The notes below the pieces were generated by a model. That model searched no databases and was not told the origin of the DNA. It was given only the letters and a program-made list of their open reading frames with translations. 26,816 nucleotides of DNA from an uncultured Gammaproteobacteria bacterium. Lineage in GTDB: Bacteria > Patescibacteriota > Patescibacteriia > UBA2169. Positions within the stretch are counted from its first letter, which is position 1, and each line of letters begins with the position of its first letter. A program made the translations under genes and the position numbers. Location: contig CAZBWF010000001.1 of NCBI GenBank assembly GCA_964495675.1, forward strand, positions 3,114-29,929. Reading direction: 5' to 3'. This document shows, in pieces, positions 18,081 through 26,816 of this stretch.

Positions 18081-19274
18081 ATGGCGAAAAAAACGAATAA
18101 AAATTTTAATCTTCTCGACCGCGGCGTTTCGGACGTTGTGGTGCGCCAAGGATTGGAAAAACTTCTCGCAAGCGGCAAAAAGCTCCGCGTGTATTTTGGC
18201 ATTGACCCCACCTCGCCCAACATCCACCTCGGCAATGCGGTGCCGTTGCGCAAACTCCGCGATTTTCAAAACGCGGGGCACGAGTGCATTCTGCTCGTGG
18301 GCAGTTTCACGGCCCGCATCGGCGACACGTCCGACAAGGATGCCATGCGGCGCCCTTTGGAGCCCAAAGAGATTGCGGCGAATTTTAAGACATACAAGGC
18401 GCAGGCCGCAAAGATTTTAACTATCAAAAAAATCAAAGTCCTCTACAACGACGCGTGGCTCTCGCGCCTCACGTTTGCGGACGTGGCGCGCCTCGCCTCG
18501 GAATTTACGGTTCAGCAGATGGTTGAGCGCGACATGTTCGAGAAGCGGCTCAAAGACGGCAAGCCCATTGGTTTGCACGAATTTTTATATCCCCTGATGC
18601 AGGGGTACGACTCGGTGCACATGGGCGTTGACGTTGAAATCGGCGGCAATGACCAGCTCTTCAACATGCTCGCGGGCCGAACGCTTTTGCGCACGCTCAA
18701 AGGCAAGGAAAAGCACGTGGTGACCACTCCTCTCTTGGAGGGGCTGGACGGCCGAAAGATGTCCAAGTCCTACGGCAACACCGTCAACATTACGGATGAC
18801 CCGGCTGACATGTACGGCAAAATCATGTCAATCGCGGACGAGCTCATTATCACATACTTTGAACTGTGCACGGACGTGCCGTCGAGCGAGATTCACGACA
18901 TCGCCGCAGTGCTCAAGCAGGGCGCCAAGGCGCGGGACGCCAAGGCGCGGCTCGCGTTTGAAATCGTCAAGCTCTACCACGGCCAGCGGGCCGCGGAAGA
19001 GGCGGAGGAGGAGTTCGAGAAGGTGTTCCGCAGAGGCGAAAGGCCGGAGGAGATTAACGTCGTGAAGGTGCGCGGCGCAAAGCACCAAGCGCGCGATTTG
19101 CTTGTGCACCTCGGCATGGCATCATCCAAGTCCGAAGCCGGGCGGCTCATTCAGCAGGGGGGCGTAAAGATTGACGACAAGGTTGTGCGGGACTGGAAAT
19201 GGAGCGTCAGCCCGAAATCCGGCATGGTGGTGCAGGTTGGAAAAAGAAAATTTGTCAAAATAGAAACCACATAA
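18081..19274 (+). CDS. tyrS: Tyrosine--tRNA ligase
   Basis: 397 aa; 'GIDPTSPNIHLGN' (HIGH), 'YPLMQGYD', 'GGNDQLFN', KMSKS, C-terminal S4-like domain. Confidence 0.97.
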   Translation: MAKKTNKNFNLLDRGVSDVVVRQGLEKLLASGKKLRVYFGIDPTSPNIHLGNAVPLRKLRDFQNAGHECILLVGSFTARIGDTSDKDAMRRPLEPKEIAANFKTYKAQAAKILTIKKIKVLYNDAWLSRLTFADVARLASEFTVQQMVERDMFEKRLKDGKPIGLHEFLYPLMQGYDSVHMGVDVEIGGNDQLFNMLAGRTLLRTLKGKEKHVVTTPLLEGLDGRKMSKSYGNTVNITDDPADMYGKIMSIADELIITYFELCTDVPSSEIHDIAAVLKQGAKARDAKARLAFEIVKLYHGQRAAEEAEEEFEKVFRRGERPEEINVVKVRGAKHQARDLLVHLGMASSKSEAGRLIQQGGVKIDDKVVRDWKWSVSPKSGMVVQVGKRKFVKIETT

Positions 19275-19276
19275 CT

Positions 19277-19651
19277 ATGGACATCCAAGACCAGAACAAT
19301 TTTGGAGAGGCAAGTACCCCTGCCGGAAAACCGTGGATGATTATTATAATCGCCGCCGCGCTCGTTGTTATTGCCGGCTCCGCAGCGTGGTGGTATGTGG
19401 CAAGCCGCGAGGAGGCGGTTGCGCTACCGGAAGCGCAGGAGGAACCGGCGCAGTCGGTTGGCGGGCTTGAGCTTTCGCCGGACGCGGCTACTCCGAGCAG
19501 TACTGCCGCGCCGCTTGTAGTTCCGGAAAAAGTTACCACTGATGCGGAAATCGAAGCACTGCTCAAACAGCTTGAGGCCGATGAGGCGGCTGATGATTTT
19601 GACGATGCCGGAGCTGCCGGCTCCTCGGACAGCGATTTGCAATCGTTTTAA
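19277..19651 (+). CDS. Single-pass membrane hypothetical protein with acidic low-complexity tail (124 aa; start moved from 19199)
   Basis: MDIQDQNN..., TM 'WMIIIIAAALVVIAGSAAWWYV', Pro/Ala linker, acidic end 'IEALLKQLEADEAADDFDD'; ATG 2 nt after the tyrS stop. Confidence 0.75.
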   Translation: MDIQDQNNFGEASTPAGKPWMIIIIAAALVVIAGSAAWWYVASREEAVALPEAQEEPAQSVGGLELSPDAATPSSTAAPLVVPEKVTTDAEIEALLKQLEADEAADDFDDAGAAGSSDSDLQSF

Positions 19652-19660
19652 CAAAAAGAT

Positions 19661-21895
19661 ATGTACTTCAAATTTGGCTTATTGTGCGTAGCGCTTCTTG
19701 CCTCCGTCTCCTTGGCGCAAGCCGCAACGCCGGAGGAGCAAATAAACGAAATCAAGCGCCAGGCGGACCGGACGTGCGTGCGGCTCCAGCCCAGAGTGAA
19801 TTCCGCGCTTTTCAGCTTGTCGAGCGCCAACGAACTCACGAGCATTTCCCGAGAGCGAGCCGAGCTCAAAACCGATATTGCGAGCACAACCGATAGCGTG
19901 AAAGCGCGGCTCGACAGCTGGTGCGCAACCATGCGCACCAGCCCCCCGGCCACGCTGGAGGCGGTTTCCGCGCTCGCTGACCAGCTGAATGAAATAAAGG
20001 TCGAAGAGAATTTTCTGCCGACATTCGGGTTGCTTGAGTCATTTGATGCCATACTTGGCGATTTTGTCGAGCTGAAATCAGCTGTTGGCGATGCCACTTC
20101 CGGCGGAATTGTGAAAGATAAAAACGATTTTGCCGGCGGCGTTGCCGGGGCAGCGGCGGATGCCGCCGTCGAGGCGCGCATCAATCAGGCCGTTTCGGAT
20201 GCGCAGACGAAATTGGGCGAAGCGCAATCCGCGCTTCCGCCTGATGAGCTTTTCCGGCAGGCCCCGGCGCAATCCGCGGCGGCCTCGGCAGAAACGCAGA
20301 GGACCATTGACTCCAAAATAAAAGCAGTCAAAAGCGCGGTTGCGGCAGGCAGGGCGCACGTTAAAAAAGCGCGCGCTGATTTGGACGCAAAGCTTGAACG
20401 CGCCGCGCTCGAGAGCGTTTCCCCATCAGGCAAGAGCGCGGCGTATCAAGCGGCGTATGCCGCGGCCCGCGAACGCGTTGCCCAAGCCAAGCGGGGCGCT
20501 ATTCGGAGCGTTGAGTCGAGAATCCGGGGCTTGGGGCGGCTTAAGGGGCTCGTGGAGCAGGCGTCTCTTTTGAGCGAGGGAACGCGCGGTGACTTAGTGG
20601 CGGATGCGAGCTATCGCCTGGGCGTCCTCACCTCCATCAAGAGTGCGCTTGAGGCCGCCGGTGCTGACACCCGCTACTCCGCGATTACGGCCCAAGAGCG
20701 CCGCGTTGCAGAGCTGAAGCTTGATGTGATTGTTCCAGCCATCAATGACATGCTTGAATGGGAGGACGCGCTCGAAATTTTGAACGGCCAAACCACCGCG
20801 AACGCGTCTTTGGAATCCGGGCTTCGTGATTTTGTCGCCATTATGCAAAACGAGCAAAAAAAAGCCGCGATTGCCGCCGCGCTTGGGGCAGCGCGCATGG
20901 CGCCGTTGACGCAGCAGCTTGCGGCCATAAATCTGAACCAATTTAATGATCAGCTGATTGTGACCCAAGCGCAGGCCGTGTTTAACCCCACAGACGCAGA
21001 AGGGAGCGCGGGAAAAACCATGATTACCTCGGGCTCCTCGGCAGAAAGGGACGCCATACTCGTGCATGAGCTCACGCGGCTCATTGATGACTTTCAAAAA
21101 ACCCTTGGCCCGGAGCGAAAAAAGGTGGAGCGCGCGCGCAAGGACTGGCTCGCCTTGGTTAAGGAGGCCGCATCGAGCGGAAAAATTACGGACCTTGCGC
21201 CGTTTGTGGACGATATCCGCGCCCAGAAGATTTTTGACGAGTTTAATGAGCGGCGCGAAACGTTCTACGCGCAGGCGGGCCGGCTGGTGGGGCTCCGGAA
21301 GGGCGCCATTGCAAAAAACGCGGAACGCATAGCCGCCCGTACCGCCATTCCGCAAGCGGCGCGCATTGGCAACAATCTGGCGGATTTCACCTCGGCAGTG
21401 GTCAGCCAGCTGGACGCGCACGAAACAGCCATGCGCGCGACCGCGGACTACCTTGCGCTCCGCGAAAAGGTTCGCGACATCACCACACTCGGCGTCAACA
21501 CGGTGTTTATTCCGGCACAGCGGCTGTATCTTGACGCGGACAAATTTTTCACGCGGCAGGCCGTTCTCCGCGTCATCAGCGGCGCGCTCATCACTCGCGC
21601 GCAGGCCCTACCCGGTTCGCACGCTTCCCGCGATACCTTGGTGCAGCAGGCGCAGGCCGTTGATACCAGAATTTCCAACGTCGGAACACAACTCTCCGCG
21701 GCGCTGACTGGGCCATTGAACCAGGCGCTCGCGCTTCGCGCGAGCGCGCAAACCGCCGCAGATGTTACTGCGGCCGAGGAGCAGCTTGACGCCGCGGCCG
21801 CGGCCATTGGCGCCGCGCGGAAAGAGCTCGGCACCCTGCGGCGGGATGTTTCGAGCTTGCTCCGGAGCATACAGCAAGCCGAGAAAACGCCGTAG
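19661..21895 (+). CDS. Large secreted Ala-rich alpha-helical protein of unknown function
   Basis: 744 aa; signal peptide MYFKFGLLCVALLASVSLAQA with AQA cleavage site; amphipathic helical composition; no recognisable catalytic motif. Confidence 0.8.
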   Translation: MYFKFGLLCVALLASVSLAQAATPEEQINEIKRQADRTCVRLQPRVNSALFSLSSANELTSISRERAELKTDIASTTDSVKARLDSWCATMRTSPPATLEAVSALADQLNEIKVEENFLPTFGLLESFDAILGDFVELKSAVGDATSGGIVKDKNDFAGGVAGAAADAAVEARINQAVSDAQTKLGEAQSALPPDELFRQAPAQSAAASAETQRTIDSKIKAVKSAVAAGRAHVKKARADLDAKLERAALESVSPSGKSAAYQAAYAAARERVAQAKRGAIRSVESRIRGLGRLKGLVEQASLLSEGTRGDLVADASYRLGVLTSIKSALEAAGADTRYSAITAQERRVAELKLDVIVPAINDMLEWEDALEILNGQTTANASLESGLRDFVAIMQNEQKKAAIAAALGAARMAPLTQQLAAINLNQFNDQLIVTQAQAVFNPTDAEGSAGKTMITSGSSAERDAILVHELTRLIDDFQKTLGPERKKVERARKDWLALVKEAASSGKITDLAPFVDDIRAQKIFDEFNERRETFYAQAGRLVGLRKGAIAKNAERIAARTAIPQAARIGNNLADFTSAVVSQLDAHETAMRATADYLALREKVRDITTLGVNTVFIPAQRLYLDADKFFTRQAVLRVISGALITRAQALPGSHASRDTLVQQAQAVDTRISNVGTQLSAALTGPLNQALALRASAQTAADVTAAEEQLDAAAAAIGAARKELGTLRRDVSSLLRSIQQAEKTP

Positions 21896-21898
21896 CGC

Positions 21899-22840
21899 CT
21901 ACAGCGCGCTCGCGCCTTCGCGGTAAAACGCCGCCGCGTCCTCGGGCGCGACGGAGTTGATGATGATGCCCGAGCCGATTTCAATCCCTGCCCAGAACTG
22001 GCCGCGGGGCGTTACTTTAATGTACAGGTGCTGGTCCTCCTCCTCTACCACCTGATGAAAGTAATAGTTGTAGGAGAGCCCCATGGTGCTGATGCGGCCG
22101 AGCACGTGTTTGAGGATTGTGGCGATGGAACGGCGCTCGGCGGCCGTGAGCGCGCTGACGTTGTCCGCCAAGCGCTTGGGCATAATCCAGCACTCATAGT
22201 TGTGCATGGAGGCGTACGGCGCGAAGCAGGCCGCGTGGCGATTTTCCCAGATCGCGCGCGGGCCTTTCATTTCTTTTTTGAGAATGTCGAGATAGGGATG
22301 CGTGCCGCGCTTCAGGCGGTACTCGAGCGTCTTCTGCAGTTTGTCGGCAATGTGGGGCGGCACGAAGCTGGTTGCGAATATTTGGGAATGGGCGTGCCGA
22401 ATGGAGGCGCCGGCCCGGCCCCCGTCGTTTTTAAAGACGAGGATGTAGTTGATGTCCTTAATTTTTTGTATGGCTCGGGTTCTTTCGGCGTAGACCTCAA
22501 GGAGCTCGGCAATGTGGCGCACCGGCAGCTCATCGAGCCCTTGGTTCGGGTCCGGGGTCTCAATGACCACCTCCTGCGTGCCGTAGGCCTTTGGGTTATC
22601 GAGAGTTACGGCCGGAAATTTGTTGCGGACGACCTTTATGCGCCAGGCCCGTTCCCCACCCACCGTGAGGAGCGCTTTTTCCCTTTCTACATTCTTGGGG
22701 TGAAAAATAGATTCCTCCGGATTCTCGTAGGGCTCCACCTGGTGGGGCACTTCCAACTCGTGCGGCCGCCTTCCGCGCCGAGGCGCTATGATAACGTAGT
22801 GGTCCTGCAGGTAATCTTTCCGCAGTTCGGGTTTACGCAT
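21899..22840 (-). CDS. GalT-like (HIT superfamily) sugar-1-phosphate nucleotidyltransferase, 313 aa; start moved from 23074
   Basis: 'ELRKDYLQDHYVIIAPRRGRRP', 'VVRNKFPA', 'EVVIETPD', 'FKNDGGRAGASIRHAHSQIFA' (HxHxQ). Substrate not certain, so no galT symbol given. Confidence 0.88.
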   Translation of the reverse strand: MRKPELRKDYLQDHYVIIAPRRGRRPHELEVPHQVEPYENPEESIFHPKNVEREKALLTVGGERAWRIKVVRNKFPAVTLDNPKAYGTQEVVIETPDPNQGLDELPVRHIAELLEVYAERTRAIQKIKDINYILVFKNDGGRAGASIRHAHSQIFATSFVPPHIADKLQKTLEYRLKRGTHPYLDILKKEMKGPRAIWENRHAACFAPYASMHNYECWIMPKRLADNVSALTAAERRSIATILKHVLGRISTMGLSYNYYFHQVVEEEDQHLYIKVTPRGQFWAGIEIGSGIIINSVAPEDAAAFYREGASAL

Positions 22841-23963
22841 GGCGGTTGCTTTTAATGACGTTATGGTATGCTGTTTCGTATTCCTCCACCATGCGTTCGG
22901 GCGAAAAATGCTTCTCAACATGCGCCCTGCACGCGCGCCGCATGGCTTGGTAGTCCGCTTCCGGCATGGCGTACAATTTTTTGACGCTTGCCGCCATCTC
23001 GCGCTCATTTCTGACGATGAAGCCGGTGACGCCGTTTTTAATAACTTCCGGCACCGAGCCGCGCTTGAACGCAAGTACCGGCGTGCCGCATGCCATTGCT
23101 TCTATCATCACGAGTCCAAATGGTTCATCCCATTGAATGGGGAAGAGGAGGGCCTTGGCTTTTTTGAGGAATGCAAAGCGGCGATTGCCCGCGAGCATGC
23201 CAAGATCAATTGCGTCCCCCTTCGCAACGGCCTGCCCATCCGTTTCGTTTCCGCTCCTGCCAGCCATTTTGAGCGGCAGATTTGCTTTTTGCGCTACCCG
23301 CACGGCAACGTCAAGACCCTTTTCCGGCGCGTACCGTCCCAAAAACGCAAGGTAGTTTTCCGGGCGTTCGCCGAACGGTATGGCGCGAACGTTAATGCCG
23401 TGGTGAATGACTGCCACCCAGTTCAATCGCGCGCGTTTTTTTTGGTTATGCGAGATGGCAATGTACCGGTGCTGGGCAAACCGCTCGGTTCGCCACCGCT
23501 CAATGCTTCCGGCCGGACGAATCGGGTCGTGCACCGTATAGAGCGTGGGGCTGCCGGTTGCTTCTTCAAAATAGTGCGCGAAGTCGTTGTGATACGAGTG
23601 GATAAGGTCAAGTTCTCCCCGTACTGCCATGCGGTAGGCGCGCGCGGTCAGATCCAGCTCGTATTCGCGCTTGCTCGAGTAGAGGAGCGCGAGCGAGCGT
23701 TCCGGCTCGCGCGGCGGCTGGTTTTTTGCCTGAGAGAGTTTTTGCTCGATGAACCGATCTTCGCCGGAAACGAGCCGCGCGTCAGTGCGCGTGCCAGGGG
23801 CGGCAAAAAGCGTTACGCGGTGGCCGCGCCGAGCGAGCCCGTCCGCGAGCGAAATGGCGAGTTCTCGGGGCGCAAAAATCCGATTCCCGAACCGCTTGGC
23901 TGACATGTACACCGAGGGAACCAGGATGCCGATGGCAAATTTGTTACGGCGTTTTTGTCCCAT
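22833..23963 (-). CDS. GT4 glycosyltransferase (resembles the AviGT4-like subgroup)
   Basis: 376 aa; 'FLGRYAPEKGLDVAVRVA', 'EPFGLVMIEAMACGTPV'. Confidence 0.9.
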   Translation of the reverse strand: MGQKRRNKFAIGILVPSVYMSAKRFGNRIFAPRELAISLADGLARRGHRVTLFAAPGTRTDARLVSGEDRFIEQKLSQAKNQPPREPERSLALLYSSKREYELDLTARAYRMAVRGELDLIHSYHNDFAHYFEEATGSPTLYTVHDPIRPAGSIERWRTERFAQHRYIAISHNQKKRARLNWVAVIHHGINVRAIPFGERPENYLAFLGRYAPEKGLDVAVRVAQKANLPLKMAGRSGNETDGQAVAKGDAIDLGMLAGNRRFAFLKKAKALLFPIQWDEPFGLVMIEAMACGTPVLAFKRGSVPEVIKNGVTGFIVRNEREMAASVKKLYAMPEADYQAMRRACRAHVEKHFSPERMVEEYETAYHNVIKSNRHA

Positions 23964-25158
23964 TGGTTTTTACTCCATTGCCGTTTATGCTCCGCGTATA
24001 TATGGCAATAAATTTATCAGAAATAATCTGCCAGGTAAACTTTTCTTCAACAATCCGCCGCGCCTGCTCTCCCATTGTTTTGTTTCGTTCCGCATCATTG
24101 AAGAGCATGTTGACTTTTTCGGCGATGTCCGTGGCGTTGCGCGGTTTTACAAAGAGTCCGTTGACGCCGTCTTTGACCGCGAGCGGTATGCCCCCCTTGC
24201 GGGTGACCACCACCGGCGCCTGGTACACCATGGCTTCGAGGATGACGAGCCCGAGCGGTTCATCCCACACCGAGGGCGCAATGAGCACGTCGGCCCGGGC
24301 GTAGAGCTTTTTGAGCCGCTCGGCGCCGCTCTGGCCGATGTACCCCAGCATATGGACATTCTGCAACCCGAGAGAGCGCTTGAGGGAGCGCAGTTTTTTC
24401 ATTTCAGGCCCATCCCCGATAATCAGCACCTCGCCTTGGATTTTTGCGGCGGCGCGGACAATGTATTCGACTCCCTTTTCCGGCGTGAGCCGGCCCACAA
24501 AGAGCGCAACCTTTTTTTCGGCCAAGCCGTATCGATTGTCTATGGATTTTGTGCGCTGTTTTTTTCGGTGGTCCTCGATGTTGATGCCGCCCGGAATGAT
24601 ATTGGTTTTGCGGGAAAGCTCGTAGAGCGATTGGCCCTCGAACATATCAAGAAACCACCGGCGGGTGTGGCCTGATACAGCCGTAATGCGCTTGGCATCG
24701 CGGACCGAGTGCACGGTCATATTATAAAACCGGCGGTCGTCCTTGAGATGCTTGAGATCGCTGCCGTGGGTGGTGGCAATGTAGTTAATGTTCGTGAGGT
24801 CGTGAATATAACGGGCGAGCATGGAGAGGAGCCCCAGGTGGTGGTAGTGGATGATGTCGGGCTTGAATTGCTCAACGGCGCGGGTCGTGGTTGCGAGGTA
24901 CGCGCGGTAGAGCTTGGTTATTTCAGTGGTCGTAAGGTCGCGGTAGAGCTTTGAGCCCTTGAGCTCCGGGTGGCCGATGAACACCGGAAGCGGAAAGGGC
25001 GGCTTAACATAAAATTGCCGAACTTTGGCAATCTGCCTCCGTTCGGGCGCAACCAGAGCCACGGTGTGTTTTTTTGCCACTTGGGCCATAAGGTTCCGGA
25101 GGAACGTTCCGGACCCCGAGCCCCATAAGGGAAAATCGTAGAGATAGAGTATTTTCAT
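23944..25158 (-). CDS. GT4 glycosyltransferase (404 aa; start moved from 25251)
   Basis: MKILYLYDF..., 'PDIIHYHH', 'TTHGSDL', 'FVGRLTPEKG', 'EPLGLVILEAM'; ATG overlaps the upstream stop (ATGA). Confidence 0.9.
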   Translation of the reverse strand: MKILYLYDFPLWGSGSGTFLRNLMAQVAKKHTVALVAPERRQIAKVRQFYVKPPFPLPVFIGHPELKGSKLYRDLTTTEITKLYRAYLATTTRAVEQFKPDIIHYHHLGLLSMLARYIHDLTNINYIATTHGSDLKHLKDDRRFYNMTVHSVRDAKRITAVSGHTRRWFLDMFEGQSLYELSRKTNIIPGGINIEDHRKKQRTKSIDNRYGLAEKKVALFVGRLTPEKGVEYIVRAAAKIQGEVLIIGDGPEMKKLRSLKRSLGLQNVHMLGYIGQSGAERLKKLYARADVLIAPSVWDEPLGLVILEAMVYQAPVVVTRKGGIPLAVKDGVNGLFVKPRNATDIAEKVNMLFNDAERNKTMGEQARRIVEEKFTWQIISDKFIAIYTRSINGNGVKTNGTKTP

Positions 25159-26156
25159 ACGTGTTGTACCATCTCCATGGCGGCTTTCGCCTCCCGTGGC
25201 TCGGCCGGTTCCTTGGTAAGAAAGTAAATCACGGTTCGCAGGGATGTCCACGCTTGGTATAGTTTGATGCGCTCCCAGGCCGCGCCGTCGAGCGCTACGT
25301 TTCTGGCGGCGGCGTAATGGGCGAGAAACGTTTTTTGGAGCGAGCGCACCTCGTCTTTTGTCCGCCAGCCCGCTGCCATAAAGGTGAGCTGGGTAAGGAA
25401 GTTTCCCACGTCGCGCGCCCAGTCCGCGAGGCAGATATCCGTGAAATCAATGCCCGAAACGCCGCCGTCTCGCTCCGCAACAATCACGTTCTCTGGATGA
25501 AAGTCGCCATGGATGAGGCACAACCGGTCAAGCGTTGCAAGCGTGCGCTCCTCGCGCTCGGCAAGCTCCGCAAAGTGGTGCTCCACATCAGGCCGGAATT
25601 CTGGAAAGAGCCGGCTGATTTTGGCAAGGAAATATTCTGGGCCTGGAATAACGGTTTTGATTCTGCTCGACTCGGGGTTAAAGTTTTCCACCGCATCAGT
25701 TGGGATTGCGTGGAGTTCCGCGAGCCACTCGGCCGCGCCGCGGATGTACTCGGCAATTGTATCTCCGCCCTTTCGAATGTAGTGGAGCAGTGTTCGTCCG
25801 GCAATGCCGCGGTACAGGAAGGCCGCAAGCGAGCGGTCGAAAAAGAGCGGTTCTGGCACAAAGAGCGCTCCTGTTTTGAATCCATGTTCAGTAATGAAGC
25901 GCAATGCGCGGTACGCGTTTTCGCGGCTTTCGTTCGAGTGCGCAGAACAAAAAATCGGCTTGTCACCGAACGCGGGCGCGTCGTAGCGAATTACGACGTG
26001 GTAGAAATCTACATCTATGTTACGTTTTATCGGTGTTGCTGTCAATCCCGAAAAAGTATATTCCCCCGCAAAGAGCGGCGCGTGGAGAGCAAGGTAGGAC
26101 GCGACAAACGCCGGATCAAACAGCTGCTCAATGGGGTGTTTTTTCCATGGTCGCAT
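25155..26156 (-). CDS. APH/choline-kinase-like small-molecule phosphotransferase
   Basis: 333 aa; 'AEWLAELH', Brenner-type 'LIHGDFHPENVIV', metal-binding 'IDFTD'. Confidence 0.85.
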   Translation of the reverse strand: MRPWKKHPIEQLFDPAFVASYLALHAPLFAGEYTFSGLTATPIKRNIDVDFYHVVIRYDAPAFGDKPIFCSAHSNESRENAYRALRFITEHGFKTGALFVPEPLFFDRSLAAFLYRGIAGRTLLHYIRKGGDTIAEYIRGAAEWLAELHAIPTDAVENFNPESSRIKTVIPGPEYFLAKISRLFPEFRPDVEHHFAELAEREERTLATLDRLCLIHGDFHPENVIVAERDGGVSGIDFTDICLADWARDVGNFLTQLTFMAAGWRTKDEVRSLQKTFLAHYAAARNVALDGAAWERIKLYQAWTSLRTVIYFLTKEPAEPREAKAAMEMVQHV

Positions 26157-26157
26157 A

Positions 26158-26811
26158 TTACGCGTTTGCGCTTTTGTGTATTCGCATCGCCCTCCGGTAG
26201 AGCGTCAGATATTTTTTTGCGGGAATCTCCCAGGAGTGCGACTGCTGCATGCCCCGCTTGACGAGCCGCCGCCACGCGTCCGCATGCCGGTACACCTCAA
26301 GCGCGCGGGTAAGAGCAATTAAAAATTCCGGGGCGCCGTACTTGGTGAATACGAATCCGTTGCCCCTGCCGGTTCTGGGGTTGTAGTCCGTTACCGTGTC
26401 CGCCAGCCCGCCCACGGCGTGCACCACCGGCACGGAGCCGTACCGCAAGCTGATGAGCTGGCCCAATCCGCACGGCTCAAATCGCGATGGCATGAGGAAC
26501 ATGTCTGAACCCGCGTAAATCTCCGCGGCCGTGGTGGTATCAAACGCCAGGTGCGCCCCGACTTTTTCGGGGTAGCGCCTTACGAGCTGTTTGAAAAAAT
26601 TCTCATACTGCTTGCTTCCGGTTCCGGCAATGACGAGCTGGATATCCTGCGCCAGGAGCGTGTCCGCTATCTCCATGAGCAAGTCGAACCCTTTCTGCTC
26701 GGTAATGCGCGTGACCATGCCGAGGACGGGGACATCGCGGTTTTGCGGCAAGCCGAATGTTTTTTGGAGGCTTGTTTTGTTCGTGCTCTTTTTGTCGAGT
26801 GTGCGAGCGTC
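26158..26811 (-). CDS. glgA: Glycogen/starch synthase (GT5), C-terminal half; 5' part outside the window, in-frame TAA at 26812-26814
   Basis: Frame extends upstream of the track start: DARTLDKKSTNKTSLQKTFGLPQNRDVPVLGMVTRITEQKG...; 'FLMPSRFEPCGLGQLISLRYG.VPVVHAVGGLADTV' is the GT5 signature. Confidence 0.88.
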   Translation of the reverse strand, partial: DARTLDKKSTNKTSLQKTFGLPQNRDVPVLGMVTRITEQKGFDLLMEIADTLLAQDIQLVIAGTGSKQYENFFKQLVRRYPEKVGAHLAFDTTTAAEIYAGSDMFLMPSRFEPCGLGQLISLRYGSVPVVHAVGGLADTVTDYNPRTGRGNGFVFTKYGAPEFLIALTRALEVYRHADAWRRLVKRGMQQSHSWEIPAKKYLTLYRRAMRIHKSANA

Positions 26812-26816
26812 TTAGC

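Follow-up and report, generated by a model that had tools for sequence, protein, structure and literature searches.

The last gene of a glycosyltransferase operon from the Patescibacteria encodes a GalT-like HIT nucleotidyltransferase (P0002, 313 aa) in which the catalytic motif is intact and most ligands of both structural metal sites have been lost. The leading reading, to which we give a probability of roughly 55%, is that this protein is an active nucleotidyltransferase of the type of Arabidopsis At5g18200, that it would serve the glycosyltransferases encoded just upstream of it, and that its structural metal sites have been dismantled. Its activity, its nucleotide, the direction of its reaction and its lack of bound metal are what we infer; what is new is that both metal sites have been lost and that the operon occurs in a variant with GT4 enzymes. 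A literature search found no paper on the subject, and a 2024 review of prokaryotic alpha-glucan enzymes mentions neither GalT nor ADP-glucose phosphorylase nor the Patescibacteria.

The gene, its family and its predicted fold

The window, that is, the whole stretch of DNA that was analysed (26,816 nt), reaches the end of a contig of 29.9 kb. It belongs to a genome of 0.77 Mb in 115 contigs that is 91% complete, and absences in this genome are read against that figure. Its assignment to the Patescibacteria follows from the names under which homologues are deposited. The open reading frame at 21899..22840, proposed in the original prediction, is real: it runs along the minus strand, specifies a 313-aa protein, and is supported by homology, profile matches and a structural model. 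Its ATG overlaps the stop codon of the upstream GT4 gene (GT4b) by 8 nt, and the stop of the convergent gene is 3 nt from its own stop. A promoter and terminator scan gave sites no more numerous than in shuffled sequence.

The catalytic HAHSQ reported earlier was likewise recovered, at 22382..22396 (read 22396-22382 on the minus strand), and comprises H149, the nucleophile H151 and Q153. These three residues are invariant in 122 aligned homologues, and the alignments indicate that the catalytic and near-invariant residues of the family are all retained in the window protein. A chance occurrence of the motif is ruled out by full-length homology to At5g18200 (E 2.5e-35).

That match is also the best among solved structures by sequence, followed by Pyrobaculum GalT (2.8e-26), E. 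coli GalT (2.8e-19) and human GALT (4e-12). Of the Pfam models, PF01087 (GalP_UDP_transf) scores 52.6 against a cut-off of 22.1, with weaker matches to DUF4931, DUF4921 and HIT, while PF02744 falls below its cut-off (17.8 vs 29.2), as do both NCBIfam GalT models (TIGR00209, 85.2 vs 102.1; NF008724, 97.4 vs 448). An AlphaFold (AF2) model built from 122 homologues has a mean pLDDT of 96 and a pTM of 0.93. A Foldseek search with this model places 1z84 and 2h39 on top (TM 0.85-0.87) and E. coli GalT next, and values of 0.82-0.87 to 1z84, 2h39 and 1hxp support a two-HIT-domain fold. Judged by sequence and predicted fold, the window protein is a member of the GalT branch of the HIT superfamily (class I GalT), and At5g18200 (EC 2.7.7.36) is its closest characterised relative.

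At5g18200 catalyzes the reversible conversion of ADP-glucose and phosphate to ADP and glucose-1-phosphate. It shares with the window protein the HxHxQ motif with its nucleophilic histidine, the two-HIT-domain architecture (PDB 1Z84, 2H39) and a similar C-terminal G-x-E-I-G-x-G-x-x-I-N segment; however, the two are about 29% identical, and the window gene, unlike its Arabidopsis relative, lies in a glycosyltransferase operon. What At5g18200 does in the plant is, according to PMC11066809, still not known. E. coli GalT (1HXP) resembles the window protein in fold (TMq 0.82-0.85) and in its ping-pong histidine motif, but the sequence alignment between them spans residues 84-254 only. Among the homologues there is also an 871-aa protein (P0178) with two tandem GalT-like units.

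Loss of the metal sites

In E. coli GalT, zinc is bound by Cys52, Cys55, His115 and His164, and there is an Fe site as well (PMC5081055). Human GALT (5IN3) has no active-site zinc site, the corresponding residues being Asn72, Cys75, Ser135 and His184, with hydrogen bonds instead; although it lacks site 1 it is active, and the second site is the only one at which it binds zinc (PMC5081055). Ligand positions in the window protein were mapped from alignments to At5g18200 and E. coli GalT, together with the published ligands (PMC5081055), and the At5g18200 numbers were counted from the alignment.

At site 1, the first CxxC is replaced by S44-I-F-H47 (22700..22711, read 22711-22700 on the minus strand). 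Further on, E-T-P-D-P98 (22547..22561, read 22561-22547) stands where the family has ETPDH, with P98 aligning with the third site-1 ligand, E. coli His115 (At5g18200 His133); E. coli His164 aligns with H149, which is retained. At site 2, also on the minus strand, the second CxxC is replaced by H181-P-Y-L184 (22289..22300, read 22300-22289), L224 (22169..22171) takes the position of the histidine in the family's PKRH (At5g18200 His255), and the fourth position is retained as H271 (22028..22030; At5g18200 His310). At5g18200 has Cys or His at all eight columns (C63, C66, H133 and H184; C216, C219, H255 and H310), whereas the window protein reads S, H, P, H and H, L, L, H, and the two Cys2His2 sites are absent. 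Four of four cysteines and two of four canonical histidines are gone; the histidines that remain are H149 and H47 at site 1 and H181 and H271 at site 2.

Both CxxC replacements, SIFH and HPYL, had been correctly called from the sequence alone, and at site 2 the loss goes beyond what had been described, since the third ligand (L224) is missing as well. Another position that had been taken for a ligand, the histidine of 'GxHEV', was misassigned: the residue in question, Q89, aligns with Ser106 of E. coli GalT, and all close relatives have Gln there, even the ones in which CxxC is intact, so that this position does not belong to the ligands. The broader statement that zinc ligands are lacking holds for all four cysteines and two canonical histidines, but two histidines remain at each former site. 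A reduced metal site is consequently possible, and we infer from the ligand columns that the protein is likely, rather than certainly, metal-free. Human GALT provides the precedent for an active family member without the active-site zinc site, although it keeps the second-site zinc, whereas in the window protein most ligands are gone from both sites. The place of the lost metal sites was probably taken by hydrogen bonds and hydrophobic packing, as is the case for human GALT at site 1.

A tally of the ligand columns over 242 full-length homologues puts this loss in context. Site 1 is C-C-H-H in 171 of the 242 and S-H-P-H in 29, and these 29 proteins are exactly the clade of the window protein, in which the pattern is 100% conserved at 56-69% identity. 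In the tree, the clade has support of 100/99, and its sister comprises homologues in which both sites are kept (from genomes G267 and G205). Site 2 is C-C-H-H in 187 of 242, and the window protein is the sole case of H-L-L-H; its clade mates are mostly E-C-H-H or C-C-H-H, and L184 and L224 replace residues (Cys and His, respectively) that are 97% conserved in close relatives. Loss of metal sites recurs in glycosyltransferase-linked clades of the tree and extends to both sites in another homologue (G175), while a large clade without an adjacent glgA is uniformly C-C-H-H at both. On this comparison of sequences, the loss is real, derived and partly fixed by lineage.

The operon and its variants

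On the minus strand, the gene order is glgA, an APH-fold kinase gene, GT4a, GT4b and the GalT-like gene, and the junctions overlap or abut. Of glgA (26158..26816; GT5, ADP-glucose type, by profile match), the contig end leaves the 3' part. It is followed by the kinase (25155..26156, 333 aa) and by GT4a (23944..25158), a BshA/GlgM-like GT4 glycosyltransferase that probably starts with the ATG at 25158, which overlaps the stop codon of the kinase gene; its longest open reading frame begins at 25251. GT4b (22833..23963, 376 aa) is the direct upstream partner of the GalT-like gene; like the kinase, it was assigned from Pfam and NCBIfam, and among solved structures it is closest to that of the UDP-glucose-dependent glucosylsucrose synthase TeGSS (7FG9, E 4e-49). 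When the kinase was compared by sequence with solved structures, sugar kinases were unmatched; its same-position copies at related loci (L058-L063) are 44-54% identical to it. The glgA frame (window 26752-26816) contains a TAA in frame at 26814-26812, with two bases left before the contig end; this is most likely an assembly-end artefact, and no other contig of the genome yielded the N-terminal half of glgA.

Five full loci of the S-H-P-H clade have the order GlgA1, APH kinase, two or three GT4 enzymes and the GalT-like protein, followed by a convergent tyrS. In sister lineages, the order is GH15, GlgA1, GH57, GH57-UVR, APH kinase, PHP, GlgA2 and GalT-like. This operon, a GlgC-less alpha-glucan operon of the Patescibacteria, is like that of the window in having GlgA1, the APH-fold kinase, a terminal GalT-like gene, a convergent tyrS and no GlgC; it differs in that GH57 and a second GlgA lie upstream of the GalT-like gene, where the window has GT4b, and the GalT-like protein lacks metal site 1 in the window's clade. 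By comparison of these gene orders, GT4 genes took the place of GH57, PHP and GlgA2 in the clade. GH57 was not found in the window's own genome or in five other genomes of the clade, six in total. The description of the gene as lying next to glgA thus stands insofar as both belong to one operon, but the direct neighbor in this clade is a GT4 gene.

Two genes, encoding 150 and 744 aa (the larger product without a Pfam match), occupy window positions 19199-21895 between tyrS and the GalT-like gene. Since the convergent tyrS follows within about 0.5 kb of the GalT-like gene in L058-L063, this pair looks like an insertion. In addition, the metagenome-assembled genome records behind L058-L060, L064 and L065 are titled 'uncultured Gammaproteobacteria' or 'Methanosarcinales' while their protein source names give Patescibacteria, and the titles look mislabelled.

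Within the window's own genome, at 91% completeness, GlgC, GalK, GlgP, GH13 and GH77 were not found, nor were GH15, PHP and a second glgA. Present are GalU, a short RmlA-like enzyme, ManC and one PGM/PMM. A check for galK, galE and glgC had been suggested; galK and glgC are among the absences just listed, and galE is represented only by a GalE-like fragment at a contig end (143 bits over half of the model), in addition to other SDRs. The features of a Leloir GalT equivalog are wanting on the side of the NCBIfam cut-off, of galK/galE partners and of a structural zinc site near the active site, although the last is not general in the family, as human GALT shows.

Linkage to glycosyltransferases across the phylum

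An even sample of 301 Patescibacteria genomes was surveyed, with a threshold of E<=1e-20 for GalT-like proteins; the tallies of GalT-like and GalU-like proteins include one unpublished genome (G154), on which none of the individual statements depends. GalT-like proteins occur in 136 of the 301 genomes, GlgA in 61, GlgP-like proteins in 22 and GalU-like proteins in 210, and GlgC was found in none (0/301). In the 29 genomes that have both GlgA and a GalT-like protein, the two are directly adjacent or fused in 15, and in four more, the window's own genome included, they are no more than 6 kb apart. In one genome (G081, L043:6921-9404), GlgA (GT5) and the GalT-like unit form a single protein of 827 aa, and in another protein (P0129, 631 aa), a GT4b-like enzyme is fused to a GalT-like unit. 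In G030, a stop codon lies between the GlgA and GalT-like genes, which are thus two separate genes; in G062, the homologue is encoded directly downstream of GT4 genes.

It should be noted that the two genes are not associated at the level of whole genomes: 29 of 61 GlgA-positive genomes have a GalT-like protein, as against 136 of 301 overall, and such an association was rejected. About half of the GlgA-positive genomes have no GalT-like protein at E<=1e-20, and some glgA clusters have none or only a very divergent copy. As there is no genome-level enrichment, only the physical linkage carries weight. The survey undercounts linked copies, since G005 was scored negative at this threshold despite a divergent GalT-like reading frame (269 aa, 25% identity, L071:9283-10092) directly after GlgA2. 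The presence of GalU was rejected as a discriminator, since 210 of the 301 genomes have it, including most of the GlgA-positive ones. Complementarity between GlgP and GalT-like proteins was also rejected as evidence: GlgP-like proteins occur in 2 of 29 GlgA-positive genomes with a GalT-like protein and in 12 of 32 without, but about three lineages (f9, f30 and f67) account for this pattern.

Several other arrangements were seen in the course of the survey. APH-fold kinases recur in Pfam-annotated glgA clusters of Patescibacteria (L069:10162-11931, L078:7086-8670 and L038:11236-13166), one form being a 589-aa double-kinase protein, and in two of these three clusters a phosphatase adjoins the kinase (PHP in G267, His_Phos_1 in G187), which suggests a phosphorylation cycle on a substrate. 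In G205 (L042:9204-13898), a close homologue with both metal sites closes a run of GH130 (mannoside phosphorylase), GT4 and GT4 genes, another case in which an enzyme that produces a sugar-1-phosphate lies upstream of glycosyltransferases and a HIT enzyme.

Possible roles of the enzyme

Given the physical linkage and the two independent fusions, the substrate of the enzyme is postulated to be the sugar donor that its partner glycosyltransferase uses. In this model, an active class I, GalT-branch HIT nucleotidyltransferase of the ADP-glucose-phosphorylase (At5g18200) type would work through a covalent NMP-His151 intermediate, interconverting a hexose-1-phosphate (most likely glucose-1-phosphate) and an NDP with NDP-hexose and phosphate or, alternatively, exchanging a hexose-1-phosphate on an NDP-hexose. 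The sugar donor of its partners, which would be GT4b, GT4a and GlgA, could then be supplied or recycled without a pyrophosphorylase that consumes NTP. Coupled to a glycosyltransferase, such a phosphorylase would give a net transfer from glucose-1-phosphate with catalytic ADP. In thermodynamic terms this equals the glucan-phosphorylase reaction, so that both directions are conceivable.

The original prediction had gone further, in proposing that the enzyme may supply or recycle ADP-glucose in place of GlgC. That At5g18200 is the closest relative, that the scores fall below the GalT cut-offs, that neither GlgC nor galK was found, and that the gene is linked to GlgA and GT4 genes all speak for the supply of ADP-glucose. 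However, GalU is present in this genome, as in 210 of 301, so UDP-glucose is available and a replacement of GlgC is not forced. With GalU present, UDP-glucose chemistry may also operate, including a Leloir-like exchange fed by the kinase of the operon. If the leading reading holds, GlgC and the window enzyme would be alike in supplying the NDP-glucose donor of GlgA, but they have unrelated folds and chemistry, and GlgC uses ATP and releases PPi. A more specific version, a metal-independent HIT NDP-glucose phosphorylase that runs in the synthetic direction and is coupled, in some species by fusion, to GT-B glycosyltransferases, is put forward tentatively, with the odds against it.

The exchange chemistry could also belong to a salvage pathway. 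Here the APH-fold kinase would make a hexose-1-phosphate, which the GalT-like enzyme would swap onto the UDP-glucose made by GalU, yielding a UDP-hexose for the GT4 enzymes, in parallel with GalK plus GalT or with bifidobacterial NahK plus GalT2. The conservation of the kinase in the operon and in other Patescibacterial GlgA clusters would fit such a pathway, as would GalU, the partial GalE-like gene at a contig end, the resemblance of GT4b to UDP-glucose glucosyltransferases that act on small molecules or oligosaccharides, and one distant homologue that adjoins a GH2 enzyme. Nevertheless, we consider salvage improbable: both NCBIfam cut-offs for GalT are missed, At5g18200 is closer than any GalT, the kinase matches no solved sugar kinase by sequence, and fusion or adjacency to GlgA, a glucose polymerase, is better explained by a glucose donor.

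The same components could, somewhat less plausibly than in salvage, serve breakdown. Phosphorolysis of NDP-glucose would pull the glycosyltransferase backwards, and the pair of glycosyltransferase and HIT enzyme would be a two-step stand-in for glucan phosphorylase. McCoy et al. are said to have reported in 2006 that the At5g18200 equilibrium favors phosphorolysis of ADP-glucose, and the absence of GlgP, GH13, GH57 and GH77 from the genome as recovered, as well as the scarcity of GlgP-like proteins where GlgA and a GalT-like protein occur together, would be in keeping with this. However, the GlgP pattern comes from the three or so lineages named above and is hence not independent, the reversal of GT5 and GT4 enzymes is unfavorable, and the net thermodynamics are the same as for synthesis, so that direction would hinge on metabolite levels. 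Finally, it is very improbable that the protein is a decaying or non-catalytic relic whose metal sites were lost under relaxed selection: although three site-2 ligands are gone in this protein alone and 12 positions deviate from the 90% consensus of close relatives, the reading frame is intact and translationally coupled, the catalytic and near-invariant residues are retained in a confident model, the S-H-P-H pattern is held throughout the 29 proteins of the clade, and human GALT functions although site 1 is missing (PMC5081055).

Implications

With respect to the family, the GalT-like proteins form a natural series for the replacement of zinc sites, from both sites intact through the loss of site 1 to the loss of both. 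The window protein is an extreme case in this series, which is relevant to the debate on what zinc does in GalT enzymes, human GALT included.

With respect to the organisms, ADP-glucose-type glycogen synthases are present in a fifth of the surveyed genomes, yet GlgC was found in none of the 301, and the source of the glucosyl donor is consequently a question that lends itself to direct tests. The obvious candidate for its supply is a HIT phosphorylase, repeatedly found next to a glycosyltransferase and in two cases fused to one. If synthesis by a metal-independent phosphorylase were true, these ultra-small bacteria would make their glucans and glucosides out of sugar-1-phosphates and would need ADP or UDP in no more than catalytic amounts, and the enzyme would be an ATP-sparing replacement for pyrophosphorylases of the GlgC type.
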